The translations under genes and the position numbers were made by a program. This document shows, in pieces, positions 3,815 to 59,554 of a stretch of DNA of 64,000 nucleotides. The notes beneath the pieces were generated by a model. The model ran no database searches. It was not told the origin of the DNA and was given only the letters and a program-made list of their open reading frames with translations. The stretch comes from Candidatus Doudnabacteria bacterium. Lineage in GTDB: Bacteria > Patescibacteriota > Doudnabacteria > UBA920. Every line of letters starts with the position of its first letter. The stretch's first letter is position 1. The stretch lies in contig CAWINB010000001.1 of the NCBI GenBank assembly GCA_963837465.1, forward strand, positions 75,915 to 139,914, read 5' to 3'.

Positions 3815-3919
3815 TACTGACCTTTAACACATAGCTTAATAATCAGATGTGTCGCAAACTCTATAAAATCAAGCAGTTTTGATTAACATCTCTATTAACT
3901 TAAGTGTTAAAGGTCAGTA
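3815..3919. mobile_element. 105-bp MITE-like repeat, copy 1
   Basis: Terminal inverted repeats TACTGACCTTTAACAC / GTGTTAAAGGTCAGTA. Near-identical full copy at 34198-34302 and 3' half at 59455-59497. All are intergenic. Confidence 0.6.
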
Positions 3920-3954
3920 GATTCTGCGGTTTTACGTGGTGTCCGCAAGCTCTG

Positions 3955-32458: not shown

Positions 32459-32532
32459 TGCCCGGTAGCCAAGCGGTAAGGCAGAGGACTCTGAATCCTC
32501 CATCGAAGGTCCGAATCCTTCCCGGGCAGCCA
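32459..32532 (+). tRNA. tRNA-Gln (anticodon CTG)
   Basis: Manual cloverleaf. U1-A72 acceptor TGCCCGG/CCGGGCA, anticodon loop CTCTGAA, T-loop TCCGAAT, discriminator G, encoded CCA. 74 nt. Confidence 0.8.
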
Positions 32533-32558
32533 TCAACACTTTTTATCGAGTGACCGAG

Positions 32559-32870
32559 ATGCCTACAAAATCGATAAAATTCAAGCAAGACAAATTCCGC
32601 CGCTCGCGCGGAGGTTATTCAAGATTACTTGAAATAAAGTGCGAAAAATGCGGCCAACTACTTTGCTATTATCAAAAAGATGGCCCCGGTCCATTAAAAC
32701 GGATGTACATAGACAGGATTATTAAATCGTACGCAAAGGCTCGCAAAAATCTAGTCTGTAGAAACTGCGGGCATATACTTGGCGTTCGTTATACCTACGA
32801 AAAAGAAAAAAGACCGGCTTTTAGAATGTTTGAGGGGTCTGTGATAAAAAAGGTTACAAAGAAGAAATGA
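32559..32870 (+). CDS. zinc-ribbon protein (CxxC...CxxC)
   Basis: CEKCGQ...CRNCGH. AT-rich. 4-nt overlap with the next gene. Track start 32550 is GTG. Confidence 0.45.
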   Translation: MPTKSIKFKQDKFRRSRGGYSRLLEIKCEKCGQLLCYYQKDGPGPLKRMYIDRIIKSYAKARKNLVCRNCGHILGVRYTYEKEKRPAFRMFEGSVIKKVTKKK

Positions 32871-33388
32871 AGAAGATTTACATTACCGGCGTATCCGGCA
32901 CGGGCAAATCCGCGATTGCAAAAGAATTAAAAAAGAGGGGCGTTTTTGCATTCGACATAGAAGAAGTTGAGGGGATGTGCTACTGGGTGGATAAAAAAAC
33001 TCAAGAACAGGATATTAATTATAGTCCTACAATGGATTGGTTAGAAGCGCACGATTGGATTTGTGATACAAAAAAATTAAAGGAGTTATTAGCAAGTGAG
33101 AAGGATATAATAATAGCTACAGGAATCACTGGCAATCAAGATGAGTATTTAAATTTGTTCGATAAAATTTTTTTACTACAAAGCGAAGAAGAAACATTTA
33201 CAAACAGAATGGCCTCGCGGCATTTACAACCTGGAGAAAATAGTTATGGGCAATATCCTGCCGAAAGAGAATTTGCAATAAGGAATTATAAAAATTTTGA
33301 AAATAAAATGATTGCACTTGGCGCAATCCTTGTAAATGCTGAGCTTTCTCTCAGTGAAGTTGCTGATCAAATTCTTTCAAAAATCTAA
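32867..33388 (+). CDS. P-loop NTPase (nucleotide/nucleoside kinase-like)
   Basis: Walker A GVSGTGKS near the N-terminus. 173 aa. AT-rich. Confidence 0.6.
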   Translation: MKKIYITGVSGTGKSAIAKELKKRGVFAFDIEEVEGMCYWVDKKTQEQDINYSPTMDWLEAHDWICDTKKLKELLASEKDIIIATGITGNQDEYLNLFDKIFLLQSEEETFTNRMASRHLQPGENSYGQYPAEREFAIRNYKNFENKMIALGAILVNAELSLSEVADQILSKI

Positions 33389-33407
33389 ATAAACTAGCCT
33401 GACCGAG

Positions 33408-33944
33408 GTGTCTATGATACAAGAAAAAAAATTAGCCCAGTATCTAGTGGTTATAATGCCAATATTAATTTCAATAATTGCTCTTGGGTTGTCTGGTTAT
33501 GCAGTTTATATTTCCTATAAACAACTTCAGTTTAGTTCGCGTCCATACGTTTTTGTTGAAAATTTTGGCTACTTGAATAAAGATAATCTGTTAGTACAGG
33601 ACATACAAAGTGTCCTTATCAAACCCTTAAATAGCCCCAGTAAAATTTTACAGGGCCAATTTGTATATTCCCTTTTCCAAAATGGTAAATTAATAAAAAC
33701 CCTTGATTCTCAAGGCTATCCAAGTTATATCCTTTACCCTACTGATGGAGATCAGCACACGCAAACTACGGGAATCGACCTTATCAGCCTGTTAAAAAAT
33801 CTTGGCAACGGGCAAGAGATTAGAAGATCAGTCAGCGTAAGCTATAAAGGCTTATCTGATAATAAACAGTATTTTTTTCAGGGTTCGTGGAAATTAGATC
33901 CAATAAGTAAAACTTGGCAAGTTATTGATACAAACGCTGACTAG
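33408..33944 (+). CDS. hypothetical membrane-anchored protein
   Basis: 178 aa with N-terminal TM helix. AT-rich. Confidence 0.4.
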   Translation: MSMIQEKKLAQYLVVIMPILISIIALGLSGYAVYISYKQLQFSSRPYVFVENFGYLNKDNLLVQDIQSVLIKPLNSPSKILQGQFVYSLFQNGKLIKTLDSQGYPSYILYPTDGDQHTQTTGIDLISLLKNLGNGQEIRRSVSVSYKGLSDNKQYFFQGSWKLDPISKTWQVIDTNAD

Positions 33945-34112
33945 ATTTAAAAATTTAGCCCCCGACCGAGGTGCATCAACGGGCCTCTGGCAAAACGTTC
34001 CGAAACCCCTTACAATACCCCTAAGAGTCAGGTGGGTATCCGTGCCACACAGCCACTAATTCTGGTTCCTGGAGACCTATCGACCCTCAATCAAAGGTCT
34101 AGAATCTATAAT

Positions 34113-34153
34113 AAAAAAGAGCGTGGATTTTTGCATCCATGCTCTTTTTTTTG
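34113..34153. terminator. strong bidirectional intrinsic terminator
   Basis: A6-AGAGCGTGGAT-TTTTGC-ATCCATGCTCT-T8. 11-bp stem with one G-T pair. Confidence 0.7.
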
Positions 34154-34197
34154 TCTAAACTACTTTAAGTAATGTTTTACTTGGTTCGGTTACATTC

Positions 34198-34302
34198 TAC
34201 TGACCTTTAACACATAGCTTAATAATCAGATGTGTCGCAAACTCTGTAAAATCAAGCATTTTTGATTAACATCTCTATTAACTTAAGTGTTAAAGGTCAG
34301 TA
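34198..34302. mobile_element. 105-bp MITE-like repeat, copy 2
   Basis: Near-identical to copy 1 (2-3 substitutions). 17-bp terminal inverted repeats CTACTGACCTTTAACAC. Confidence 0.6.
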
Positions 34303-34477
34303 GGATGGGGAAATGCGTACTACGAGCGCAAATTCTAATCTGAAGTGCAATCGCCGGCCCAGCCAATTAAAACTGTTACCAAGACTTTAGCGGGTAGCTC
34401 ATAAATGGGTTACTTATTAAGGGGTGGTTCAATTCGGCCATGTTTCTTATTTTTACTATCTTTGGTATAATAAACTC

Positions 34478-35503
34478 ATGCAAATGGCAATTCTTTATGG
34501 AATAATAGTCTTTCTTTTGGCTGGCTTTGGCGTGTTTTTTTATTTTTTGATGGGTTTAAAAAATAAAGCCGAAAAACCCGTCGATGACGGCAATATGAAG
34601 ATAATGCTGGAATGGATGAAGGAGATGAAGCAGAGTACGGAGGCGACCCGGGAAGGCATGCAAAAGTCCATAGATTCGACCAATAAAGCCATTAACGAGA
34701 GGCTGGATAACGCGGCAAAAGTTATCGGGGCTTTGTCCAAAGAGCTTGGCGGGGTATCGCAAATCGGGCCGGACATTCGGCGATTATCAGAAACCCTGGC
34801 TTCTCCCAAAATGCGCGGCAACTTTGGCGAAGAGATGCTGGAAAATATGCTGGGACAGATTTTGCCTAAAAATAATTTTAAAATCCAGTACCGTTTTAAA
34901 AACGGCGAAACAGTTGATGCCTGCATATTTATTGGCGAAACGATTTTGTCCATAGACAGCAAGTTCTCCTTAGAAAACTTCCGTCTATATAAAGAGGCCA
35001 AAGACGACGAAACGGCGGAAACTTTAAAGAAAGCGTTTTTAAAGGACGTAAAAAAACGGGTGGACGAAATTTGCAAAAAATACATCCTGCCGCAGGAGGG
35101 CACTTTTGATTTCGCGCTAATGTATGTGCCGAGCGAAGGAATTTACCAGGAAGTTATTGAAGCTTCTGATATCATCGAATACTGCCGAAGCAAAGCTGTT
35201 ATTCCCGTTTCCCCGAACACGATGTACATTTACCTGCGCAACATTATGCTGAGTTTGCGCGGCCAGGAAATAAACAAAAAGGCCCAAGAGATTCTTAAAA
35301 TGATCAGCGGCATAAAAACCGAAAGCGAAAAATTCGGCAAAAACCTGGAAGTTTTAGGCACCCACATAAAAAACGCGGGCAACACAATGGGAACCGTTGT
35401 GAATGACTTTACTCGCCTCCGCGGCAACATCCAAAACGCGGCGAATTTGGAATTGGAAGCGGAAGAAATTAAAGTTATAAAAGAACCCCAAAAGTTAATA
35501 TAA
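34478..35503 (+). CDS. rmuC: DNA recombination protein RmuC
   Basis: N-terminal TM and coiled coil. RGNFGEEMLENMLGQ matches the RmuC motif. ATG 34478 preferred over the track start 34424. Confidence 0.8.
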   Translation: MQMAILYGIIVFLLAGFGVFFYFLMGLKNKAEKPVDDGNMKIMLEWMKEMKQSTEATREGMQKSIDSTNKAINERLDNAAKVIGALSKELGGVSQIGPDIRRLSETLASPKMRGNFGEEMLENMLGQILPKNNFKIQYRFKNGETVDACIFIGETILSIDSKFSLENFRLYKEAKDDETAETLKKAFLKDVKKRVDEICKKYILPQEGTFDFALMYVPSEGIYQEVIEASDIIEYCRSKAVIPVSPNTMYIYLRNIMLSLRGQEINKKAQEILKMISGIKTESEKFGKNLEVLGTHIKNAGNTMGTVVNDFTRLRGNIQNAANLELEAEEIKVIKEPQKLI

Positions 35504-35507
35504 TTGT

Positions 35508-36164
35508 ATGCCCAAAAATCCAGAAATAATATTAGGAGGTGGCGGAGAAAAGCAAGTTTACGAAGATAAAATTGATCCTTTAAAAGTCACCGCTGAATTT
35601 CCAGATGCAGTACAAGATTTAAATACTGGAAATTCGGATTATAAACCAAATCAGATTAAAGGAGCTTACTATTTGGGTAAAATTGCCAAGTTGCTATTTC
35701 CTGATGCTGTCGCCGAGCATTATGCCGCCGGTATGAAACCGTTGCCATTTTTAAGGATATCAAAATTGGAATTAGATTCTGACCATGTCGAATATCAAGA
35801 GTCTTTGAGAACACCGACGGAGCTTGCTGAACGTTTAGAAAATCGATTACCGGGCATTCAGGCATTAACAAAAACAATGAATAAGGCCGGATTAAGAATT
35901 GATGACATGCCGCATAATTTTTCTTACTCACCGGAAGGGCATTTGCAATATGTGGACGCCAAATTACCATGGAGGGTTGAAGTTATGGACCCATTTACCA
36001 AAAAGCAGAGTGTTGAGCTACATTTTTCTCCAACTAAATTAAAACGAGCAATTGAAAATCTACCTCAGCCCCAACAGAAAATTGCGATGCGATATTATGA
36101 ACGGTTAATAAAATTACATAGTGAAGAGAAAAAAATAATCAAACAAGAAAATAGAAAAATATGA
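35508..36164 (+). CDS. hypothetical protein, possibly a minimal kinase-like fold
   Basis: Gly-rich LGGGGEKQVYE, catalytic-loop-like IDDMPHN and YVDAK about 19 aa later. 4-nt gap after rmuC and 4-nt overlap with the NYN gene. Interpretation is inference. Confidence 0.45.
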   Translation: MPKNPEIILGGGGEKQVYEDKIDPLKVTAEFPDAVQDLNTGNSDYKPNQIKGAYYLGKIAKLLFPDAVAEHYAAGMKPLPFLRISKLELDSDHVEYQESLRTPTELAERLENRLPGIQALTKTMNKAGLRIDDMPHNFSYSPEGHLQYVDAKLPWRVEVMDPFTKKQSVELHFSPTKLKRAIENLPQPQQKIAMRYYERLIKLHSEEKKIIKQENRKI

Positions 36165-36682
36165 GTATTAGAAACCCAGACCAGCGCGTCGGTGTGTTTG
36201 TGGATGTACAGAATTTGTACTATTCCGCCAGAAATATTTATCAGGCCAGAGTGAAATTTAATGAGGTTTTGGAAGCGGCTGTGGCCGGACGTAAGCTAAT
36301 TCGCGCCATTGCTTATTGCGTTAAAGCGGATATGCCGGAAGAACATACTTTTTTTGAGGCTTTGGAAAAAGCCGGCTTTGAGGTAAAAATGAAGGAACTG
36401 CAAACTTTTGCCGGCGGCCATCAAAAAGGGGATTGGGATGTCGGGATTGCCATGGATATTATTAAGCTTATGAACAAGCTGGACGTAATAGTCTTGGCCA
36501 GCGGCGACGGCGACTATCTTCCTTTGCTGGAGTACCTGCAAATGTCCGGTCAATTCACCGAAACCCTGGCCTTTGGCAAATCCTGCTCGGGAAAAATTAA
36601 GGAAGTCACGGATTATTTTATAGATCTCGACGAAAATCCCCGCAAATTCCTGATGCCTATCAAGAACGGGAAAAACAGATAG
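36161..36682 (+). CDS. NYN-domain (LabA-like, PIN-fold) ribonuclease
   Basis: VFVDVQNLYY ... GDWDVGIAMD ... VLASGDGDYLPL are NYN-domain motifs. Confidence 0.75.
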   Translation: MSIRNPDQRVGVFVDVQNLYYSARNIYQARVKFNEVLEAAVAGRKLIRAIAYCVKADMPEEHTFFEALEKAGFEVKMKELQTFAGGHQKGDWDVGIAMDIIKLMNKLDVIVLASGDGDYLPLLEYLQMSGQFTETLAFGKSCSGKIKEVTDYFIDLDENPRKFLMPIKNGKNR

Positions 36683-36697
36683 GAAGGAATTGCACGG

Positions 36698-37135
36698 ATG
36701 AACACGGATAGGAAACAGATTAACACGGAGTTGCTGCACGAAGATTTGACGTACCAAATCCGGTCGGCAATTTTTGAGATAGCTAATAAGTATGGGAAGG
36801 GTTTTAAAGAGAGTATTTACCAGGCGGCGTTAGCCGAAGAGTTCGCCAAACGCAGTATTCCTTTTGAGTCACAAAAACGCATCACAGTTTATTCTTTAGA
36901 TACTGGCAAACCCCTGGGTTATTATATCCCGGATTTTATAGCTTACGAAAAAATTATTATAGAGATAAAAGCCACAGATTTTACGACAGACCAAAATATT
37001 GAGCAAGAGCTGTCTTATCTGCGAATAAGTACTTACGAGATTGGGATTTTAGTTAATTTTAATGCCCGCAAACTGGACATCCAAAGACTCATATTTACCA
37101 ACGACCGCAAGCTATTTTTGAAAAAAATACTCTGA
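36698..37135 (+). CDS. GxxExxY-family protein (PD-(D/E)xK nuclease-like)
   Basis: GFKESIY is the GxxExxY motif. 145 aa. Bounded by 18-bp terminal inverted repeats. Confidence 0.7.
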   Translation: MNTDRKQINTELLHEDLTYQIRSAIFEIANKYGKGFKESIYQAALAEEFAKRSIPFESQKRITVYSLDTGKPLGYYIPDFIAYEKIIIEIKATDFTTDQNIEQELSYLRISTYEIGILVNFNARKLDIQRLIFTNDRKLFLKKIL

Positions 37136-37154
37136 TCCGTGTTAATCTGTTTCT
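36712..37154. mobile_element. GxxExxY nuclease gene cassette bounded by perfect 18-bp terminal inverted repeats
   Basis: GAAACAGATTAACACGGA at 36712-36729 and its reverse complement TCCGTGTTAATCTGTTTC at 37137-37154. Shorter AACACGGAT / ATCTGT units flank both sides. Confidence 0.55.
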
Positions 37155-37193
37155 TATCTGTGTTTATCTGTTACAAATACATTATATTGTCCT

Positions 37194-37637
37194 ATGAAAA
37201 TTGTTCTAGATACCAATGTCCTAATAAACGGGTTTAAAGATGAGTATTCTTACGAAAAAAAGATTATAGGTGCCGTGATTTCGGGCGAAATAGAAGCTTA
37301 TGCCAACAGGCAGACTTTGCGGGAAAATAAATTAATCGCAGGACAGTTAATTGACAACGACGACTACAGGCACGACCTGGATAGTTTGTTCGCCCAAATA
37401 AACTGGGTGGTTAACCGGCGGCAAATCCGGGTGGTCAGCGATCCCGAAGACAATAAAATCCTGGAAAGCGCCGTGGAAGCGAAAGCGGATTTTTTAGTCA
37501 CCAGCGACAACGATTTACTGCAACTTGATAACTATCAACAAGTCCAAATAGTCAATCCAAGCCAATTTTGGCTAAAGCATAAAGACGACGGTATGGATTT
37601 GTGGAAACAGTGGGCCAGCTTTATCAGTAAAAAATAG
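37194..37637 (+). CDS. PIN-domain protein (putative toxin/RNase)
   Basis: IVLDTNVLI ... ADFLVTSDNDLL acidic PIN motifs. 147 aa. Confidence 0.7.
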   Translation: MKIVLDTNVLINGFKDEYSYEKKIIGAVISGEIEAYANRQTLRENKLIAGQLIDNDDYRHDLDSLFAQINWVVNRRQIRVVSDPEDNKILESAVEAKADFLVTSDNDLLQLDNYQQVQIVNPSQFWLKHKDDGMDLWKQWASFISKK

Positions 37638-37642
37638 CACGG

Positions 37643-40600
37643 ATGGAAAAACTGCTGGACAATCTCAATAAAGAACAGCTTTCCGCGGTTACCCATAGGG
37701 ACGGGCCGCTTTTGATAGTGGCGGGAGCCGGGACGGGAAAGACCACGGTTATTACCCGGCGGATAGCTTATTTAATAGAACAGGGATTGGCCAAGCCCGA
37801 TGAAATTTTGGCGCTAACGTTTACGGACAAAGCCGCCGGGGAAATGCAGGACAGGCTGGCGCAGTTGTTGCCTCTGGGCTATTACGATATGTGGATTTCC
37901 ACGTTCCACAGCTTTTGCCAGCGAATTTTGGAACAGCACGGGCTGGATATCGGCCTGCCCGGGGACTTTAAACTGCTCAATAAGGCGGGCGCCTGGATAT
38001 TAATTTACAATAATTTGCAGAAATTTAATTTAAATTACTACAAACCGCTGGGCAACCCCAATAAATTTATTTCCGCTTTGCTTAAGCATTTTAGCCGGTG
38101 CAAAGACGAGCTGATAACTCCGGAGGCCTATTTGGAGTACGCGCGGGAACTGAAGCTGTCTACAGATGTAGCCGAAGGTGTAGGGGCTGGCTTTAGCCGC
38201 CCGCCTCCTGATGACGGGCCGCGCGGATCTTCTTTACGGGGCGGGCAGGCAAGCCCAGCCCCCGCGGATCCCAATATGGATCCAGCCGAAACACTTCGAA
38301 TAGAAGAAATTGCCAACGCTTTCCATATTTACGAAAAACTCCTGCTGGACGGCAACTTTTTGGACTTTGCCAACCTGATTAATTACACAATAAAACTTTT
38401 TGAAAAACGCCCGCAAATTTTAAAACACTACCGGGAAAAGTTTAAATATATTATGGTGGATGAGTTTCAGGATACCAATTTGGCGCAGTACGAGCTGATT
38501 AAAATGGTTGCCGGCGGCGGATTACGCAGCGTTCCCGCTTACGGGGCGTCCCCGGATGCCGATAAATCCGCGCGCCACACCCCATCTGCCAACCTCGTAG
38601 TCGTGGGCGACGACGACCAATCCATTTACAAATTCCGCGGCGCGTCCGTTTCCAATATTTTAAAATTCCAGGAGGACTACAGCCCACTCAAACAAACCAG
38701 TTTGGTGGAAAATTACAGAAGCGGCCAGGAAATTTTGGATTTGGCTTATGACTTTATCCAGTCCAACAATCCCGAGAGGCTGGAAGTTAAGTTAAAAATC
38801 AATAAAAGACTTAAAAGCCAAACGAAGGAAAAATCTGTTATTGAGGTTTTGGAAGGCAAGGATTTGGTTGAGGAACTTAATTTTGTCGCCAAAAAAATTA
38901 CGGAACTGAAATTGCAAAGCCAAAAAAGCACCTGGAACGATTTTGCCGTTTTAATAAGAAGCAATTCCGCGGCCCGCGAACTGTTGCCGGTCCTGGAAAA
39001 GCACGGCATCCCGCACACGTTTGTGGCCAATACAGGACTCTACAACAAGCCTTTTATTTCATTGCTGATTGCTTATTTGGAATGTCTGGACAATTTTCAC
39101 GACTCTTTTGCCTTGTATCGCGTGCTTTCGTTTGGCGAATTTAATATGCCGCCGGAGGACTTGGCGCAGGTTCTGGCCAATTCCGAAAGAAAAACCTTGT
39201 CTTTATACGAAATGCTCGGCAAAGCCGAAACTTTGCCGCAAATAGGGGGGAAGTCGCAAAAAATAATTCAAAATATTATTTTGCTTTTAAACCGGCACGC
39301 CGCGGTGGCCAGAGAAAAAGCGGCTAATGAAGTCTTTATCCAGATTATCCGTGATTTAAAACTCGACCAATGGCTGGAGGAGGATAATTCGCAAAACGCG
39401 GAAAACCGCGAGCTTTTGGAGCAGTTTTATAAAAAAATTGAAACTTTTGTGGCGGAGAATGTCGATAAAAGCCTGCATAATTTTTCGCATCTGCTCAATT
39501 TGGAAATAGAAGCCGGTGACGAAGGGCAGATTAAATTTGACCCGAACTTAGGCCCCCAAAGCCTTAAAATCCTTACCGTGCATTCGGCCAAGGGCTTGGA
39601 ATTTGAATATGTTTTTATACCCAACATGGTTGACCAGCGCTTTCCCACGCGGGCGCGCGGCGAACAAATAGAAATTCCGGCGCCGCTTATAAAAGATATC
39701 CTGCCGGAAGGGGATTTCCATCTCCAGGAGGAGAGGCGGCTGTTTTACGTGGCCGTAACCCGGGCAAAATCCCATTTATACTTGTCCTGGAGCAAGGATT
39801 ACGGCGGCGCCAAAACCAAAAAGCCTTCGCTGTTTTTGCAGGAGACCAAACTGGTGCCCGGGGAACATACTTCCCGGGCCACGGGAAAAGTATTTTTTCG
39901 GGGCAGCTCGAAAAATCAGGTGGTTTACAAATTTTTACCCGCGACTTTTTCTTTTTCCGCTCTCAAAGCTTTTGAAAACTGCCCGTTCCAATACAAATAC
40001 CAGTACTACCTAAAATTGCCCTGCCCCGGCAGCGCTTATTTCAGCTTTGGCCAGACAATGCATAAAACCTTTGAGTTGTATTTGAAAGATTACGCGGCCA
40101 GAAAAAGCCAGAGCCAGCGGGATTTATTCGCCAAGACATCCGCCCAAGCCGAGCCGGGCGATTTTAAATTTTTGGAAAAACTTTACCAGGACAGCTGGGT
40201 GGATGAGTGGTATAAAGATAAAAAGCAAAAAGAAGATTACCGCGAAAGAGGCCGCCGGCTTTTAAAGATTTTTTACGAAATTTCGCGAAAAAACCCGCCG
40301 AGCCCCAAATACCTGGAAAAGTCTTTTTACCTGCCTCTGGGGAAATATAAATTTACCGGCAAAATAGACAGAGCGGATTTTGTAAACGGCGCCCTGGAAA
40401 TCATTGATTACAAAACCAGCGAAAAAATACCGAAGCAAAATGACAAGGACGGACTGGACCAGTTGTATGTTTATCAGTGGGCGGCCCAGGAATTTTTGGG
40501 GGAAAAAGTTTCTGCCCTAAAGTACTGGTATTTGAACGAGGATAAGTTTCTGCCGGAAAAAATCGCGTCGGACCCGGAAATCCGGGAATTAAAGCAAAGG

Positions 40601-40735
40601 CTTTTAAAAAGCATTGAAAATATCGCGGAAACCATCAAATACGACCGTTTCGCCCAAGCGCACGAAAATACCAGGGAACACCAATGCCAATTTGAACATT
40701 GGGAAATCCATGGTTTGAATTTAAAAATAAACTAA
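37643..40735 (+). CDS. UvrD/PcrA-family SF1 helicase with C-terminal RecB-like PD-(D/E)xK nuclease domain (AddA-like)
   Basis: Walker A GAGTGKTT, DEFQDT, VVGDDDQSIY and the helicase C-domain. C-terminal CPFQYKYQYY and IIDYKTS nuclease motifs. In-frame GC-rich palindromic insert at 38180-38263. Confidence 0.85.
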   Translation: MEKLLDNLNKEQLSAVTHRDGPLLIVAGAGTGKTTVITRRIAYLIEQGLAKPDEILALTFTDKAAGEMQDRLAQLLPLGYYDMWISTFHSFCQRILEQHGLDIGLPGDFKLLNKAGAWILIYNNLQKFNLNYYKPLGNPNKFISALLKHFSRCKDELITPEAYLEYARELKLSTDVAEGVGAGFSRPPPDDGPRGSSLRGGQASPAPADPNMDPAETLRIEEIANAFHIYEKLLLDGNFLDFANLINYTIKLFEKRPQILKHYREKFKYIMVDEFQDTNLAQYELIKMVAGGGLRSVPAYGASPDADKSARHTPSANLVVVGDDDQSIYKFRGASVSNILKFQEDYSPLKQTSLVENYRSGQEILDLAYDFIQSNNPERLEVKLKINKRLKSQTKEKSVIEVLEGKDLVEELNFVAKKITELKLQSQKSTWNDFAVLIRSNSAARELLPVLEKHGIPHTFVANTGLYNKPFISLLIAYLECLDNFHDSFALYRVLSFGEFNMPPEDLAQVLANSERKTLSLYEMLGKAETLPQIGGKSQKIIQNIILLLNRHAAVAREKAANEVFIQIIRDLKLDQWLEEDNSQNAENRELLEQFYKKIETFVAENVDKSLHNFSHLLNLEIEAGDEGQIKFDPNLGPQSLKILTVHSAKGLEFEYVFIPNMVDQRFPTRARGEQIEIPAPLIKDILPEGDFHLQEERRLFYVAVTRAKSHLYLSWSKDYGGAKTKKPSLFLQETKLVPGEHTSRATGKVFFRGSSKNQVVYKFLPATFSFSALKAFENCPFQYKYQYYLKLPCPGSAYFSFGQTMHKTFELYLKDYAARKSQSQRDLFAKTSAQAEPGDFKFLEKLYQDSWVDEWYKDKKQKEDYRERGRRLLKIFYEISRKNPPSPKYLEKSFYLPLGKYKFTGKIDRADFVNGALEIIDYKTSEKIPKQNDKDGLDQLYVYQWAAQEFLGEKVSALKYWYLNEDKFLPEKIASDPEIRELKQRLLKSIENIAETIKYDRFAQAHENTREHQCQFEHWEIHGLNLKIN
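38180..38263. repeat. GC-rich palindromic element (RPE-like) inserted in-frame in the helicase gene
   Basis: Left arm GTAGGGGCTGGCTTTAGCCGCCCG is identical to 14374-14397. Right arm is GGCGGGCAGGCAAGCCCAGCCCCC. Encodes VGAGFSRP...ASPAPA between helicase motifs. Confidence 0.7.
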
Positions 40736-40763: not shown

Positions 40764-41138
40764 ATGTCTTCAAACCCAAAAGGCCAGGTATCTTTAATAG
40801 TTTTTAGCACAGTATTGGCGGGGTTTTCGCTTGCCTCTATAATTACTTTTACCAGTCCCGTGGGAGCTTCAACCGTTACCCTAGGTTTTTTTTACGCCAG
40901 TTTGTTTTTGCTGGCCCTGGGAATTTTTACCCTTTTGGGATTGGCCTTAAGGCAGCTGTTGATGCCGGGGCGTTACGTAATTAACCTCGGTAACAGTTTC
41001 AGACAGGCATTTCTTTTGGCAGTTTTAATGTCCGTATCCTTTTTTTTGCTATCCCAGCGTCTGCTGTTTTGGTGGGTTGAGTTTAGCCTGATATTATTCT
41101 TCGCTGCCGTGGAAGGATTTTTAAATTTAAAAATATGA
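40764..41138 (+). CDS. small hypothetical membrane protein
   Basis: 124 aa, four hydrophobic helices. 4-nt overlap with pheS. Confidence 0.4.
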   Translation: MSSNPKGQVSLIVFSTVLAGFSLASIITFTSPVGASTVTLGFFYASLFLLALGIFTLLGLALRQLLMPGRYVINLGNSFRQAFLLAVLMSVSFFLLSQRLLFWWVEFSLILFFAAVEGFLNLKI

Positions 41139-42151
41139 CCGGGATTCAGGATATAAAAATACAGTTTGAAGCCGATACAAAAGGCGATTTTGATGTTGAG
41201 CAGGTAAAAAATAAATTTTTAAGCCGGAAACGCGGCCTTATTACCCAAGCCTTTGAGCAGCTTGCCGATCTGGATCTGGAAAGCAAAAAAAAGATCGGCC
41301 GGGAATTAAACGAGCTCAAAATTGAGGTTGAAGCCAAAATAGCTTCTCCTGGCGGCAAACGAAGGCCCCAGGCCGGATCTCTTGATGTTACCCTGCCGCC
41401 GCTGAATAATTTCCGCGGGCGCCTGCATCCGATAACCCAGACGGAAAAACAGCTGGAAGATATATTTAAATCAATCGGGTTCGGCGTTCGGCCGCTGCCT
41501 GAAATAGAAACCGATTGGTATAATTTTGAGGCCTTAAACATGCCCAAATTCCATCCGGCCAGGGATACGCAGGATACTTTTTACGTCAACAAGGCTTCTT
41601 TGGCAAATCCGCCCAAGGAAGAAGTGGTCTTAAGGACGCATATATCAACCGTACAGAGCAGGACCCTGGAAACTTGTCAGCCACCCTTTGCCCAGATATC
41701 TTACGGAAGAGTCTACAGGAACGAGGCTACCGACGCTTCCCACGAGCATACATATAATGAAATCGAGGGTATTGTGGTCGGTAAGGACGTAAGGTTTTCC
41801 AGTATGGTGTGGACGCTTGATTTTGTTCTAAAGAAATTTTTCGGCGGGGAGATTAAAACCCGGCTGGTACCGTCTTATTTCCCGTTTACCGAGCCCAGCG
41901 CTGAAATGGCCATCTCCTGCCTCAACTGCATGGGCAAGGGCTGCCCTGTTTGTAAAAAAACCGGCTGGGTGGAACTTTTGGGCTGTGGGATGACCCATCA
42001 AAATGTTTATGCCAATCTTGGTTATAAAAAGGGCGAGCTGCAGGGCTTCGCGTTTGGCATGGGCACCAGCAGGCTGGCGCTGATGAAATACAAAATACCC
42101 GACATCCGCTTATTTAATGAAAACAACCTGCAATTTTTAAACCAGTTTTAG
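41135..42151 (+). CDS. pheS: phenylalanyl-tRNA synthetase alpha subunit
   Basis: Class II core motifs: FHPARDTQDTFY, GRVYRNE, GFAFGMG. Confidence 0.9.
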   Translation: MTGIQDIKIQFEADTKGDFDVEQVKNKFLSRKRGLITQAFEQLADLDLESKKKIGRELNELKIEVEAKIASPGGKRRPQAGSLDVTLPPLNNFRGRLHPITQTEKQLEDIFKSIGFGVRPLPEIETDWYNFEALNMPKFHPARDTQDTFYVNKASLANPPKEEVVLRTHISTVQSRTLETCQPPFAQISYGRVYRNEATDASHEHTYNEIEGIVVGKDVRFSSMVWTLDFVLKKFFGGEIKTRLVPSYFPFTEPSAEMAISCLNCMGKGCPVCKKTGWVELLGCGMTHQNVYANLGYKKGELQGFAFGMGTSRLALMKYKIPDIRLFNENNLQFLNQF

Positions 42152-43708: not shown

Positions 43709-46141
43709 ATGAAATTTTCCCTGAACCTTTTAAAACAGTTTGTAAAAATTGATATGGAGCCGGAAAAACTCGGACAGCTTTTAACCGAGAAGGCTTTTGA
43801 AGTGGAAGAAGTAACCGCGGTTGGCGGCGGGGATTTTGGAAATATTACGGCTGCGAAAGTTTTGGAAGTTGCCAAGCACCCCAACGCCGACAGGCTCAGG
43901 GTTATTAAACTTGATGTCGGCGGGGGGAAGATTGTTTATCCGGTCGTCTGCGGAGCTTTTAATTTTGGCCCTGGAGACATAGTGGCTCTGGCGCTGCCCG
44001 GCGCCAAAATCGCCCAAAATATCCACTCCAAAAGCCGCGAAAGTTTTATTCTGCGAAAAGCCACTATAAGGGGCGTGGAAAGCCAGGGAATGATTTGCGC
44101 CGCTTTTGAACTTGGTTTGGAAAATCAGCCGGGGGAGGGAATTATGCTGCTGAAAAAATCCGTAGCGGCCGGCGCGGCCCTTGCCGAAGCCCTTGATACC
44201 GGCAGCCGGGACCGCGTGCTGAACATCTCTCTGCCGGCCAACAGGAGCGATTTATATTCCCATTTGGGAGTGGGGAGGGAAGTGGCGGCGGTGACCGGGG
44301 CAAAGTTAAAAGTTGAAAATAAAAAGTTGAAGCTTCCCAAAACGTCCGAAAATTTTAAAATTATTGTCAGGAGCAAACAACTCTGCCCAAGGTATTATGG
44401 CGTAAGGATGTCGGTAAAAATTGGGCCGAGCCCCGGGTTTATCCAGGACGTTCTTTCGGCTGTGGGCATGAGGCCGATTAACAATGTCGTGGATGTAACC
44501 AATTACGTAATGATGGAATTGGGCAACCCCACCCACGCCTTTGACGCTAAATTCGTTAAGGGGGATATTGTGGTCAAGACCGCCGCTGAGAGTGAAAAAT
44601 TTTTGGCTTTAAACCATAAAGAATATAAGCTAAGCTCTGATGATTTGGTCATTGCCGACAGCGAGAAAACTTTGGGCCTGGCCGGAATTATCGGCGGCAA
44701 GGAAAGCGAAATCAGCGAAACTACGGCTGAAATAATTTTGGAAGTGGCCAATTTCCAGGCACAGGGGATTAGAAAAACTTCCAAGAGGCTTGACATAAAC
44801 ACGGAAGGCGGCAGAATGTGGGAAAAAGGAATTCATCCCAGACTTGCCGAGCTTGCGCTTGCCCGCTGTCTTGAGCTGCTGCAAAAATATGCCGGCGCTG
44901 ATGTTTTGGAATTCGCCAAGTTTGAATCGCCGGTAAAACCCGCGGCCGCGATAAAATTCAGCGCCTCCGACATCAACAACCTCCTTGGGACGGGATTTAG
45001 CGCCAAAGAAATTCAAAAATATTTGCTGCGTTACGGAATTATCTCCAAAATTGTAAATTCTAAATCCGGAGTTTTAAACAGCGCTCCTCCCTGGTGGCGG
45101 ACCGATGTCGGCACGGTTCCCGATTTGGCCGAAGAAGTCCTGAAGCTTTACGGGTACAACAAGGTCAGGCCGGCGGCTTTGGCAATAACAGGATCATCAA
45201 TCAAGCCGGCAAATCCGGAAGACGGAGTTTACGAAACAAAAAACTTTTTCGCGCTGCTTGGTTACGCCGAGGTCCAGAATTATAATTTTGTTTCCCAAAA
45301 GGATATTGCCGCTTTTGGCGCCGGCATTAAAGATCATGTGGAAATCCGGAACCCGCTTTCCGAAGACCAGCGCTATTTAAAAAAATACCCGCTGATTTCG
45401 ATCTTAAAAAATATTGAGCTTAACCAAAAGCATTTTAGCGGCTTTAAAATTTTTGAAGCGGGAAAACAATATTTTGATTTTGGGAAAGAACCCCGAGTTT
45501 TACTGGCTGCCAGCTTTAGTAAGCTGGAGGCCGCTGAAAAACTTTTAATGAAAATCAAGGGCGACGTTTTGGAATATCTTAAGTCTTTGGGCATTAACGA
45601 TGTCCAATTCAAAACGGACGAAAACCCCGCCCGGCTGAGTTTAATAACAGGGGGTGTTTATGCCGGTGGAATTGGTTACGCCAGCGAAGAGCTGAAAAAA
45701 AACTTTGGGGTAGAGGGTCAGGTTGTTTTTGCGGAACTGGAGCTGGAACAAATTCTGCCTTTAAAAAAGGCCGTGGTTTATGAACCAATCAGTAAGTTGC
45801 CAAGTGTTGAGAGGGATATTTCCATGGTAGTCGACGAAAAAGTTAAATGGTCAGACATCGGAGTTGCGGTCAGCCCATTTATGGGCTCATTAAAAGCGAA
45901 AACTGATGATAAGTCCGGCGGTTATAACCTTGAGTTATCCCTTTTTGAGGCCCCATTTTTGGCCCACGACAAAGAGACGTTAAAATTCCATCAGGAACTG
46001 GCTAAACAGGGCAAAAAGAATTTAGGCATAAGGCTTTTATTTAAGCCAATAAACCGCACCATGACAGACCAGGAAATTGCTGGAATTTTAGACCAAATTG
46101 TGCTAAAATTACAGCAGGAAATAAAGGCAGAAATTCGCTAA
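43709..46141 (+). CDS. pheT: phenylalanyl-tRNA synthetase beta subunit
   Basis: N-terminal tRNA-binding domain (KHPNADRLRV), B3/4 and B5 domains. 810 aa. Confidence 0.9.
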   Translation: MKFSLNLLKQFVKIDMEPEKLGQLLTEKAFEVEEVTAVGGGDFGNITAAKVLEVAKHPNADRLRVIKLDVGGGKIVYPVVCGAFNFGPGDIVALALPGAKIAQNIHSKSRESFILRKATIRGVESQGMICAAFELGLENQPGEGIMLLKKSVAAGAALAEALDTGSRDRVLNISLPANRSDLYSHLGVGREVAAVTGAKLKVENKKLKLPKTSENFKIIVRSKQLCPRYYGVRMSVKIGPSPGFIQDVLSAVGMRPINNVVDVTNYVMMELGNPTHAFDAKFVKGDIVVKTAAESEKFLALNHKEYKLSSDDLVIADSEKTLGLAGIIGGKESEISETTAEIILEVANFQAQGIRKTSKRLDINTEGGRMWEKGIHPRLAELALARCLELLQKYAGADVLEFAKFESPVKPAAAIKFSASDINNLLGTGFSAKEIQKYLLRYGIISKIVNSKSGVLNSAPPWWRTDVGTVPDLAEEVLKLYGYNKVRPAALAITGSSIKPANPEDGVYETKNFFALLGYAEVQNYNFVSQKDIAAFGAGIKDHVEIRNPLSEDQRYLKKYPLISILKNIELNQKHFSGFKIFEAGKQYFDFGKEPRVLLAASFSKLEAAEKLLMKIKGDVLEYLKSLGINDVQFKTDENPARLSLITGGVYAGGIGYASEELKKNFGVEGQVVFAELELEQILPLKKAVVYEPISKLPSVERDISMVVDEKVKWSDIGVAVSPFMGSLKAKTDDKSGGYNLELSLFEAPFLAHDKETLKFHQELAKQGKKNLGIRLLFKPINRTMTDQEIAGILDQIVLKLQQEIKAEIR

Positions 46142-51362: not shown

Positions 51363-52709
51363 ATGCTCGACATAAAATTTATCCGTGAAAACGCGGACAA
51401 AGTAAAAAAAGCCATAACAGACAAAAGGATAGTCCTGGATCTTGATGAACTTCTCAACCTGGACGCCAAACGGCGCGACCTTTTAACGGAACTGGAGGGC
51501 CTGCAGGCGGTTAAGAATCAGGCTTCCCGGGAAATCCCGTCATTACCCGCAGAAGAAAAAAAGGTTAAGCTTTTGGAAATGAAGGAAGTGGACGAAAAAA
51601 GCACGGCTTTAAAAAAGCAGGTTACAGAAGTGGAGACGGAGTATGTAAGGCTGATGTATTTGGTGCCAAACATACCGAGCCCCGAAACCCCCATTGGAGA
51701 AGACGAATCCAAAAATATCGCGTGGCGCTACTGGAGCCAGGCGACAGGAATTATTGATCCTTTTAAGGACGGTCAAAAAGTGAAAGATGTGCCGGCAAAA
51801 TTCGATTTTCAAATAAAAGACCATATTGCCCTGGGTAAAGATTTGGATTTGATAGACACCGAAGCCGGGGTAAAAACTTCGGGCTTTAGGGGCTATTACC
51901 TAAAAAACGAAGCGGTACTTATGCAGTATGGGCTTATTTGGCTGGCCTTGAAAAAAATGCAGGAAAAAGGCTTTGGGTTAATGATCCCGCCGATTTTGGA
52001 CCGCGAATTCGCCTTTTACGGGAGCGGGCATTTCCCATTTGGCAAAGGCGACCAATATCAGGTACTGACTGAAGACGAAAAGCAAAAAGGGGATTCGGAG
52101 CCTCTTTATCTGGCCGGGACTTCGGAACCTTCGCTCCTGGCTTATTACTCCGACAAAACTTTGGAAGAAAAAGATTTACCCGTAAAAGTTTGCGGCGTCA
52201 GCCCGTGCTTTAGGGGAGAAATCGGCTCTTACGGAAAAGACGCGCGCGGAATTTACAGGGTGCACGAATTTATGAAAGTGGAACAAGTTGTTTTGTGCCG
52301 GGCGGATATAATAGAAAGCGAAAAATGGCTTGAAGATATGCGGGAAATAGCCGAGAGCCTGCTGCAGGATTTGAAACTGCCGTACAGAGTCTTAAATATT
52401 TGCACCGGGGATATGGGCGCGGGCAAATATAAAATGTACGATATTGAAACCTGGATGCCTTCACGCAACAGCTTTGGAGAAACCCACAGTGATTCCAACT
52501 TAACCGACTGGCAGGCGCGCCGCTTAAACATTAAATACAAAGCGGCGGACGGTAGAATTAAGCATGTCTACACGCTTAATAACACCGTGGTCGCCTCACC
52601 CCGAATTTTAATCGCCATTTTGGAAAATTACCAGCAAAAAGACGGCAGCATAACAGTGCCGGAAGCTTTACGGCCTTACGTGGGTAAGGATTTAATTAAA
52701 AAGAATTAA
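51363..52709 (+). CDS. serS: seryl-tRNA synthetase
   Basis: N-terminal coiled-coil arm and class II core (FRGE, GAGKYK...). Confidence 0.9.
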   Translation: MLDIKFIRENADKVKKAITDKRIVLDLDELLNLDAKRRDLLTELEGLQAVKNQASREIPSLPAEEKKVKLLEMKEVDEKSTALKKQVTEVETEYVRLMYLVPNIPSPETPIGEDESKNIAWRYWSQATGIIDPFKDGQKVKDVPAKFDFQIKDHIALGKDLDLIDTEAGVKTSGFRGYYLKNEAVLMQYGLIWLALKKMQEKGFGLMIPPILDREFAFYGSGHFPFGKGDQYQVLTEDEKQKGDSEPLYLAGTSEPSLLAYYSDKTLEEKDLPVKVCGVSPCFRGEIGSYGKDARGIYRVHEFMKVEQVVLCRADIIESEKWLEDMREIAESLLQDLKLPYRVLNICTGDMGAGKYKMYDIETWMPSRNSFGETHSDSNLTDWQARRLNIKYKAADGRIKHVYTLNNTVVASPRILIAILENYQQKDGSITVPEALRPYVGKDLIKKN

Positions 52710-52857
52710 CACGGATATACTGATTGGCCGCGGATCTACGGATATCTACTGATACTAAACTGCTACGGCGGATGTGAATAATTACCGCGTCTGATTATTG
52801 GAGTCCGTAGGCATCAGCAGATCCGTACCCCATCCGTAAACCCGTGTTTTATTATGT
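52705..52857 (+). promoter_or_regulatory. conserved structured intergenic module (copy A) upstream of the ftsQ-like gene
   Basis: Starts with ATTAACACGGAT overlapping the serS stop. CGGATCTACGGATATCTACTGATAC ... AGATCCGTACCCCATCCGTAAACCCGTGTTTTATTATGTATG. Paralogous to 59431-59554. Confidence 0.5.
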
Positions 52858-59036: not shown

Positions 59037-59435
59037 GTGGTTTGTGTAAACTTTTTATTCCCTTATTTAAAGCAAAAAATGAACCGGGAAGATTTATTAA
59101 AATTTAAATTTGATGTGGATAATGTTTGGTTTCTTTGGGGTTTATGCCTTATTTTAAATATTATAACATTTTTATTCCTGTTTTTCAAAATCCATCCGGG
59201 AAGTAAAATTTTGGCCCTGCATTATAACGTCCTGCTCGGGGTGGACTGGTACGGGGCCGGCAGGAATTTATACTTTATTCCGGGGGTGGGATTTTTAATT
59301 TCAGCCGTAAATTTTACCCTTTACCGATCGCTTGGCAACAATGAAGCCTTCCTTTCTTCTTTAACCGCTTTTGTGAGCTTGTGCGCGCAGCTTATATTAC
59401 TGGTCGCGGCGCTGTTTTTGGCTAAAGTCAATTAA
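59037..59435 (+). CDS. hypothetical membrane protein
   Basis: 132 aa, three to four TM helices. Confidence 0.4.
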   Translation: MVCVNFLFPYLKQKMNREDLLKFKFDVDNVWFLWGLCLILNIITFLFLFFKIHPGSKILALHYNVLLGVDWYGAGRNLYFIPGVGFLISAVNFTLYRSLGNNEAFLSSLTAFVSLCAQLILLVAALFLAKVN

Positions 59436-59554
59436 CACGGATCTACGAATACTATTTTGATTAACATCTCTATTAACTTAAGTGTTAAAGGTCAGTAAGA
59501 TCAGTAGGTATCTGTAGATCCGTTTTCAATCCGTATACCCGCGTTAAATTTATT
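59431..59554 (+). promoter_or_regulatory. conserved structured intergenic module (copy B) containing a partial MITE copy (59455-59497)
   Basis: AATTAACACGGATCTACGAATAC ... [MITE 3' half] ... GTATCTGTAGATCCGTTTTCAATCCGTATACCCGCGTTAAATTTATTATGTAT. Flanking inverted repeat CGGATCTAC / GTAGATCCG. Confidence 0.5.

Follow-up and report, generated by a model that had tools for sequence, protein, structure and literature searches.

Within a 64-kb stretch of the genome of a Candidatus Doudnabacteria bacterium (contig CAWINB010000001.1; the whole stretch of 64,000 nucleotides is called the window here, and positions are counted from its first letter), six co-oriented genes at 34478-40735 encode an RmuC protein, a small kinase-like protein of 218 residues, a NYN nuclease, a GxxExxY protein, a PIN nuclease and a helicase-nuclease. 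The presence of so many predicted nucleases in one run raises the question of whether the locus is a single immune system, as considered in an initial annotation that described a candidate defence or nucleic-acid-processing island, or a more ordinary operon into which other genes have been inserted. The six closely packed genes of the forward strand were confirmed at these positions, with spacings between successive open reading frames (ORFs) of 4, -4 (an overlap), 15, 58 and 5 nt, and the domain calls made for RmuC, NYN, GxxExxY, PIN and the UvrD helicase with its nuclease were borne out by Pfam and NCBIfam (Table 1). Our analysis separates the locus into two parts. We consider it likely that rmuC, NYN, PIN and the helicase-nuclease gene constitute a vertically inherited, compact core string of Doudnabacteria-like Patescibacteria, the junctions of which are an insertion hot-spot. 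The 218-aa gene and the cassette carrying the GxxExxY gene are two unrelated, strain-specific inserts, and the six genes are not one system.

Conservation of the four core genes

A search with the helicase, using one genome per species, led to Patescibacteria, with the nearest matches named Candidatus Doudnabacteria. All nine related species genomes (helicase 57-72% identical) contain, in this order, the genes for RmuC, NYN, PIN, the helicase-nuclease, a 124-aa membrane protein and a protein of ~500 aa, and the same core order is present in a 1.2-Mb contig (L081) and in the nearest relative (L176), the NYN of which is 98% identical. This observation was further strengthened by a metagenome scan anchored on NYN, in which the loci of ~50 metagenome contigs were mapped with hidden Markov models (HMMs). 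The four-gene order is kept in metagenome loci from 96% down to ~62% NYN identity; rmuC lies directly upstream of NYN in 34 of the 42 loci with sufficient flanking sequence, an adjacency that reaches ~60% NYN identity, and among the 29 loci with sufficient downstream sequence PIN was found in 20 and the helicase in 19. Three loci (L134, L116 and L121) are fully compact operons in which the genes abut or overlap, with gaps of -32 to ~+40 nt.

At greater distances the arrangement loosens. The distant Magasanikbacteria- and Falkowbacteria-type loci have rmuC and the helicase spaced 5-6 kb apart, with an O-antigen-ligase-like gene, radC and an M16 peptidase gene between them and without NYN or PIN, and far NYN orthologues adjoin the genes for PNPase, TsaD, LeuRS and the like. 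Such a gradual decay of synteny with distance argues for vertical inheritance rather than for a mobile (defence) module.

The rates at which the genes diverge were compared by their identity to the nine species genomes. NYN is the most conserved gene of the string (82-96%), on par with GyrB (76-91%), and is followed by PIN (56-81%) and by the helicase-nuclease, the orthologues of which are 40-72% identical across Patescibacteria as a whole. RmuC is 69-84% identical in seven of the nine genomes and 33-35% identical in the other two. These two (L001 290-1354 and L003 7554-8624) have in the same slot a second RmuC type, which resembles the RmuC of distant Patescibacteria.

Base composition gives a similar partition. 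The GC content at third codon positions (GC3) is 0.52 for rmuC, 0.52 for NYN, 0.51 for PIN and 0.55 for the helicase, and the four core genes are thus like the nearby housekeeping genes pheS, pheT and gyrB (0.51-0.58); the corresponding values are 0.29 for the 218-aa gene and 0.44 for the GxxExxY gene. The initial annotation had described the small genes as AT-rich accessory insertions in a housekeeping neighbourhood bounded by rmuC and the helicase, a description that holds for the 218-aa and GxxExxY genes and fails for NYN and PIN. These two are not accessory because they are syntenic, have native composition and are 56-96% identical across relatives. Since NYN and PIN belong to the syntenic core, four of the six genes, not all six, show the conserved core order that the initial annotation had itself set against its defence proposal.

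The core proteins retain their candidate catalytic residues. In NYN, D15, D91, D93, D116 and D118 are at least 95% conserved across 88 sequences; the same level was found for D6, E44, D86 and D105 of PIN (47 orthologues) and for D147 and D160-S-K162 of RmuC (51 orthologues). RmuC combines a PD-(D/E)xK nuclease domain with a coiled coil and a membrane anchor at the N-terminus, and the NYN family numbers over 7,900 relatives (E <= 1e-10). The helicase carries two GC-rich, low-complexity in-frame inserts at 38165-38285 and 38515-38590 (residues ~176-214 and ~292-316), where loop length varies among relatives. The second of these lies just before motif III, where distant Candidate Phyla Radiation (CPR) homologues (L017, L018, L020, L022) carry an insertion of ~1 kb that is possibly an intein or an inserted domain.

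Going by what is known of these protein families, the four-gene string probably serves routine nucleic-acid maintenance. RmuC, as a membrane-anchored structure-specific nuclease, and the AddA-like helicase-nuclease would act in recombination and the processing of DNA ends, and NYN and PIN, both of the PIN superfamily, would be Mg-dependent RNases or single-strand nucleases engaged in the processing and turnover of RNA or single strands. The four genes would be transcribed together.

Table 1. Features at and around the core string, with the filling of its junctions among related loci
Feature	Positions	Strand	Evidence and remarks
tRNA-Gln (CTG)	32459-32532	+	ARAGORN; Rfam tRNA 62.7 bits; left edge of low-GC accessory stretch
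Three accessory ORFs	32550-33944	+	Zn-ribbon 106 aa, AAA_18 P-loop 173 aa, membrane protein 178 aa (Pfam)
Bidirectional intrinsic terminator	34113-34150	.	16-bp hairpin stem, A/T runs on both sides (sequence, RNA fold)
Miniature inverted-repeat transposable element (MITE)	34193-34307	.	32-nt terminal inverted repeats TACTGACCTTTAACAC / GTGTTAAAGGTCAGTA; non-coding, ~107-115 nt
rmuC	34478-35503	+	PF02646, E = 8.5e-54, 183 bits vs cut-off 26; core
218-aa ORF	35508-36164	+	Without Pfam, NCBIfam or PADLOC match; accessory insert, junction 1
NYN (LabA/DUF88-type) nuclease	36161-36682	+	PF01936, E = 1e-31, 110.8 bits vs cut-off 24.2; core
Palindromic cassette, 478 nt, junction 2	36694-37171	+	Left arm 36694-36729, ORF 36698-37135, right arm 37136-37171
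GxxExxY ORF	36698-37135	+	PF13366 and TIGR04256, 106.3 bits vs cut-off 35; accessory
PIN_3 nuclease	37194-37637	+	PF13470 and TIGR00305 (50.9 vs cut-off 29.15); core
Helicase-nuclease, 1030 aa	37643-40735	+	Pfam UvrD-helicase, UvrD_C and PDDEXK_1; core
rmuC/NYN junction			Filled by >200 nt in 25/62
NYN/PIN junction			Filled by >200 nt in 26/47; empty in 16/47
PIN/helicase junction			Filled by >200 nt in 18/27
Control junction, helicase/124-aa membrane protein (tm124)			Downstream; filled by >200 nt in 4/28
Control junction, tm124/~500-aa protein (hyp498)			Downstream; filled by >200 nt in 1/21

Genes inserted at the junctions

Across related loci the junctions are bimodal: neighbouring core genes either abut or overlap (-32 to ~+40 nt) or are separated by 250-5,200 nt of extra genes. 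The cargo is heterogeneous, with 106 non-overlapping cargo ORFs falling into 74 BLASTP clusters, 59 of them singletons. Among the 84 unique cargo ORFs there are 10 PDDEXK_3 (GxxExxY) and 4 pilin-like proteins, most of the set being without a Pfam match, and an MNT/HepT pair, a 23S_rRNA_IVP protein, a GIY-YIG protein and a PaaX/Cas2-like protein occur once each. In distant genomes the NYN/PIN junction holds housekeeping genes (flavokinase, cytidylyltransferase, EamA transporter). In the nearest relative an MNT/HepT pair fills junction 1, and junction 2 is empty. Junction contents turn over fast. The window has a kinase-fold gene as the content of junction 1, the 478-nt cassette in junction 2 and nothing in junction 3.

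The cassette in junction 2 consists of a GxxExxY gene enclosed by a 36-nt inverted repeat, the arms of which are 89% complementary and built of GAT[G/T]AACACGGA sub-repeats. The 478-nt transcript segment is predicted to fold with a closing stem of ~36 bp (z = -4.9), and the translation of the gene contains the motifs G-F-K-E-S-I-Y and PDF...EIK. The gene is absent from most relatives, including the nearest one. Inverted-repeat brackets were observed at 13 of 17 non-redundant GxxExxY genes, often with a different repeat sequence, and under a strict ungapped score a bracket was present at 7 of 12 GxxExxY genes vs 3 of 231 control genes (Fisher p = 1e-8). Elsewhere, bracketed GxxExxY genes occupy all three operon junctions (L001/L130, L009, L005, L019, L094, L095 with two cassettes, L097 and L111). 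Among brackets around cargo of another kind, the strongest has 31-nt arms and encloses the PF05635 23S_rRNA_IVP gene that L166 carries between NYN and PIN.

Such cassettes are also found outside this operon. In Parcubacteria/Staskawiczbacteria a bracketed GxxExxY gene lies between PrgI-like and TraC-like genes, and another was found in a Moranbacteria contig; the PrgI-/TraC-like sites (L172 2065-3680, L173 2074-3664, L174 1-1591) are upstream of a VirB4-like ATPase gene, at a co-directional junction of an operon resembling a type IV secretion system. The arms around a GxxExxY gene on a Treponema saccharophilum plasmid share a CACGGAT / ATCCGTG core with the window cassette. The plasmid collection gave only four distant GxxExxY matches. 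On a Gemmatirosa plasmid, a distant GxxExxY gene is followed directly by a tight 32-nt palindrome of CGCGGAT repeats (L171 1405-1477) that does not bracket it; the repeat core is of the same type as that of the window cassette.

Traces of the repeat without its gene were also observed. Within the window there are two gene-less palindromes with cassette-like TTAACACGGAT...ATCCGT ends, at 52700-52856 (z = -3.4) and 59428-59550, and L002 has a remnant resembling a solo arm between NYN and PIN. Both gene-less palindromes start on the stop codon of the preceding gene, which is serS for the first and a 132-aa ORF for the second; the second also has half a MITE inserted at its centre. The nearest relatives of the window GxxExxY protein (55-86% identical) belong to other CPR classes with far more divergent core genes, a distribution that fits the "multiple transfers" noted for PDDEXK_3, a family with its function listed as unknown (PMC3424549). 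The gene-less palindromes, the L002 remnant and the relatives in other CPR classes all fit a mobile element.

By analogy with the intervening sequences (IVSs) of rRNA genes, the cassette is most likely an IVS-like selfish element. Once transcribed with the operon, the two arms would pair into a long duplex at which RNase III could cut, and cutting of this kind would let the cassette sit between co-transcribed genes at low cost. A broader proposal, which we advance tentatively and to which we give rather less than an even chance, is that widespread and previously undescribed palindrome-bounded cassettes of ~0.45-0.5 kb settle at co-transcribed junctions in several phyla, with GxxExxY genes as their cargo and perhaps also as the source of an enzyme for mobility or recognition. 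Such cassettes, with sub-repeat arms often containing a C[A/G]CG[G/A]AT core and with gene-less derivatives, would be the mRNA-operon counterpart of rRNA IVSs, and the rmuC-NYN-PIN-helicase operon would be a preferred landing pad.

The gene in junction 1 presents a different case. An exact-sequence look-up with the 218-aa protein was empty and a word-index homology search returned only the protein itself; an exhaustive HMMER search yielded 199 clusters at E <= 1e-3, mostly of 200-230 aa. The family alignment shows invariant G12, K58 and N137 and near-invariant K15 and D132 within the motif GxGxEKxVY ... D132-x4-N137 ... D150, in which the last aspartate follows 13 residues on, as between the catalytic loop and the DFG aspartate of kinases. 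A profile search of PDB sequences gave weak matches, all of them to minimal kinases (NleH1/2, OspG, HopBF1). An AlphaFold2 model built with 59 relatives reached a predicted local distance difference test score (pLDDT) of 92 and was used in place of a single-sequence model (pLDDT 47), which was discarded; its Foldseek top ranks are NleH1, NleH2 and OspG, and kinase folds lead both fold searches. PF10707 (YrbL) is weakly matched by 12 of the 59 relatives (best E = 9.3e-5), and the window protein matches no Pfam family. The model thus assigns the protein with confidence to a predicted minimal protein-kinase fold of an undescribed family, in agreement with the kinase-like call of the initial annotation.

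A 45% identical relative occupies the same rmuC/NYN slot, and further copies are present in L002, L005 and L117; the gene is absent from most relatives and from the nearest one, and no inverted-repeat bracket surrounds it. Three relatives of 36-37% identity are flanked by purL and purQ, with purF, purN and purD further on (L083 583-1248, L084 2380-3039, L087 215-874), and the kinase family is therefore not tied to nucleases. A function in purine synthesis is possible for the family, which might otherwise stand in for a component that is lacking, for instance PurC or PurS. Weaker fold matches to PurC/PAICS were also obtained, and a SAICAR-synthase-like role may be considered. With this PurC-like alternative in mind, a genuine PurC was sought in the ~1.9 Mb of collected loci, and none was present.

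Evaluation of alternative explanations

Known defence systems were examined by a PADLOC scan of nine proteins of the region, which gave generic domain matches only (UvrD models labelled GajB, a reverse transcriptase (RT)-associated RmuC model and a NYN model), in keeping with the initial annotation, which did not recognise the gene combination as a named defence system. The helicase resembles Gabija in matching the GajB model PDLC00114 (E = 2.4e-103), the GajB models being generic for UvrD, and no GajA (an OLD-family ATPase with a Toprim nuclease) was found among the nine scanned proteins. Defence-associated RT systems were considered on account of the RTasRmuC and RTasHel domain matches, but the ORFs of the 32.5-41.2 kb interval encode no RT domain. 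A classical toxin-antitoxin (TA) module at PIN was rejected, since neither the window nor the compact operons have an antitoxin gene. An integron-like cassette array was rejected as well: the window has no integrase, there is no attC-like repeat per cassette, and most cargo is without repeats. The 84 unique cargo ORFs of related loci gave almost no PADLOC matches. Of the two descriptions first offered for the locus, a nucleic-acid-processing operon with insertions stands, and the defence-island reading is not supported, given the synteny and a cargo with almost no matches to defence families.

Four alternatives merit closer comparison with the vertically inherited core string. It is scarcely credible that all six genes make up one new multi-nuclease anti-phage or anti-plasmid system, with the kinase-like protein as the sensor or regulator of four nucleases and the helicase-nuclease. 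The tight co-oriented packing, the combination of five nuclease folds with a helicase, and the occurrence of RmuC and UvrD-like domains in known defence systems (the RT-associated RmuC and GajB models of PADLOC) would be expected of such a system, but its kinase-like and GxxExxY components are missing from most relatives, the kinase family is also at home in purine operons, the GxxExxY gene is a self-contained cassette that recurs in unrelated operons, and the other four genes are slow-evolving core genes of native composition, so that this explanation is largely refuted by synteny. A more restricted version, in which the core four are a fixed genome-guardian (innate defence) module and the junction genes are exchangeable specificity, regulator or immunity modules, has a distinctly low probability in our estimation. 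It draws on the differences in cargo even between genomes with 96-98% identical NYN, on the many cargo proteins that end in winged-helix-like segments (with one Pfam HTH_24 match), on the recurrence of TA-type cargo (MNT/HepT) in junction 1 and on the frequent filling of the core junctions discussed below. Against it, the three fully empty compact operons indicate that the core works without cargo, the cargo consists mostly of unrelated singletons with almost no PADLOC matches, the same junctions hold ordinary housekeeping genes in more distant genomes, and the GyrB-like conservation of NYN is atypical for arms-race genes.

The name of TIGR00305, "putative toxin-antitoxin system toxin component, PIN family", and the small ORFs that abut or overlap the start of PIN in L004, L005, L008, L013 and L019 suggest another arrangement, in which PIN would be the toxin of a VapBC-like module with the variable upstream gene as its antitoxin, an addiction module inside a housekeeping string. 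This we regard as very improbable, given that the upstream neighbour in the window is the GxxExxY cassette, with a gap of 58 nt from the GxxExxY ORF, that NYN abuts PIN in 16 of 47 loci and leaves no room for an antitoxin, and that the upstream ORFs of PIN in relatives, where present, are mutually unrelated while PIN itself is 56-81% identical and constant in position. It is unlikely, finally, that the core four share nothing more than a position, through inherited synteny and with neither functional nor transcriptional coupling. The dispersal of the genes in distant Patescibacteria, with NYN alone among translation and RNA genes, would agree with this, but the gaps of -32 to +40 nt and the start/stop overlaps of the compact versions imply co-transcription and translational coupling, the rmuC-NYN adjacency persists down to ~60% NYN identity, and all four proteins act on nucleic acids.

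The core-string interpretation also has several observations weighing against it. The three core junctions are filled in 40-67% of cases vs 5-14% at neighbouring junctions, a difference that insertion which is "simply tolerated" fails to explain, and a functional tie between cargo and core nucleases is possible. A fixed, conserved chromosomal position is no bar to a defence role, RecBCD and AddAB serving both. A consensus promoter and terminator scan gave counts equal to those of shuffled sequence, missed an obvious hairpin and was not used; co-transcription and RNase III processing are inferred. The sole solved relative of NYN is 2qip, annotated as "unknown function"; PIN has no solved relative by sequence; and to our knowledge there is no demonstrated function for the NYN, PIN_3 or GxxExxY families. 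As regards the inserts, 4 of the 17 GxxExxY genes (L104/L105, L169, L170 and L171) are without a bracket at the thresholds used.

Had the locus been a defence island, it would have represented a new multi-nuclease immune system; the data indicate a core maintenance operon, and the defence claim should therefore be dropped. The rmuC-NYN-PIN-helicase/nuclease string, with its gyrase-like conservation in minimal genomes, offers a handle on the roles of NYN/LabA, PIN_3 and RmuC proteins. Of most interest at this locus is the IVS-like GxxExxY cassette: the regular enclosure of GxxExxY genes by IVS-like repeats suggests a mobile-element or RNase III-processing model, which would give a reason for these genes being multi-copy and horizontally spread. 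It is, together with the unannotated kinase-fold family of ~200 clusters and two recurrent contexts (rmuC/NYN and purL/purQ), worth follow-up.

Flanking features and comparison with known systems

Upstream of rmuC, the MITE, the terminator and the tRNA-Gln gene of the initial annotation were all confirmed (Table 1). The three accessory ORFs that follow the tRNA gene have GC3 values of 0.41, 0.31 and 0.31 vs 0.51-0.58 for core genes and no homologue at any of the nine related genome loci, and they are probably the remnant of an integrated element. Since the nearest relative has a serine recombinase, a small terminase and a helix-turn-helix (HTH) gene directly upstream of rmuC (L176 1216-4089), the region appears to be an integration site. 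A repeat search and an alignment of the three copies placed two further MITE copies in the window: one of 98% identity at 3815-3920 and, at 59455-59501, half of one. A GC-rich non-coding segment of ~150 nt (33960-34110) separates the 178-aa ORF from the terminator; it has no Rfam match and is predicted to have modest structure besides the terminator. Rfam searches of the window at the gathering threshold and at relaxed E-values found only two tRNAs, and weak plant-miRNA matches on the MITE were taken as chance.

On the other side of the core string, the window encodes a canonical PheS (41135-42151, 338 aa) and PheT (43709-46141, 810 aa). The nine related genomes, the 1.2-Mb contig L081 (16624-18215) and the nearest relative L176 (13254-14519) have two other genes instead. 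The first encodes a free-standing tRNA_bind protein that matches PheT residues 43-152 at 65-72% identity, and the second a protein of ~377 aa that combines tRNA-synt_2d and FDX-ACB, the single-chain architecture of mitochondrial PheRS.

Among known elements, the cassette most resembles rRNA IVSs. In Coxiella the 23S IVS is 428-444 nt long; an ORF occupies the loop above its terminal stem of 28 bp, and RNase III excises the element (PMC4990558). IVP ORFs are also found in CPR rRNA insertions (PMC11270868). The window cassette shares with the IVSs of Coxiella and Leptospira (PF05635, S23p/IVP) a length of ~0.45 kb and a small ORF looped out from a terminal inverted-repeat stem of ~30 bp; the PF05635 cassette of L166 occupies the very NYN/PIN junction that the GxxExxY cassette fills here. 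It differs in lying between the protein genes of an operon, the Rfam search having shown no rRNA in the window; in its ORF, which encodes a GxxExxY PD-(D/E)xK nuclease and not a four-helix-bundle IVS protein; and in its arms, which are arrays of short sub-repeats. A likeness to repetitive extragenic palindromic (REP) elements and their associated tyrosine transposases (RAYTs) lies in a small nuclease-type gene flanked by inverted short repeats, with gene-less copies elsewhere, but GxxExxY has a PD-(D/E)xK fold and not that of an HUH/Y1 transposase, and only two gene-less copies occur in 64 kb.

The 218-aa protein is comparable to NleH, OspG, HopBF1 and YrbL in its size of ~210 aa, its glycine-rich loop and its predicted D-x4-N catalytic loop with an aspartate 13 residues on. 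Unlike them it is without the conserved beta3 lysine, the invariant K58 being placed in a helix instead, and in contrast to NleH, OspG and HopBF1 it is not a secreted effector. Relatives are found in purine operons.

The helicase-nuclease joins a superfamily 1 (SF1) UvrD-like helicase and a C-terminal RecB-family PD-(D/E)xK nuclease in one chain, as do proteins of AddAB, RecBCD and AdnAB. It differs from AddAB and RecBCD in its weak scores, which fall far below the equivalog cut-offs (addA 172.5 vs 707.65; recB 164.5 vs 696), and its best NCBIfam match is PcrA (458 bits vs cut-off 911). The 64-kb window contains no AddB, RecC or RecD partner and no second helicase-nuclease or paralogue. E. coli RmuC (YigN) has been reported to limit inversions at short inverted repeats. 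The RmuC of the window is similar to it in being a full-length PF02646 match with the D...D-S-K nuclease motif and differs in its score of 38 bits vs the enterobacterial equivalog cut-off of 810. A further distinction lies in its context, as RmuC here would be translationally coupled to a NYN nuclease, an association that has been kept across the lineage.

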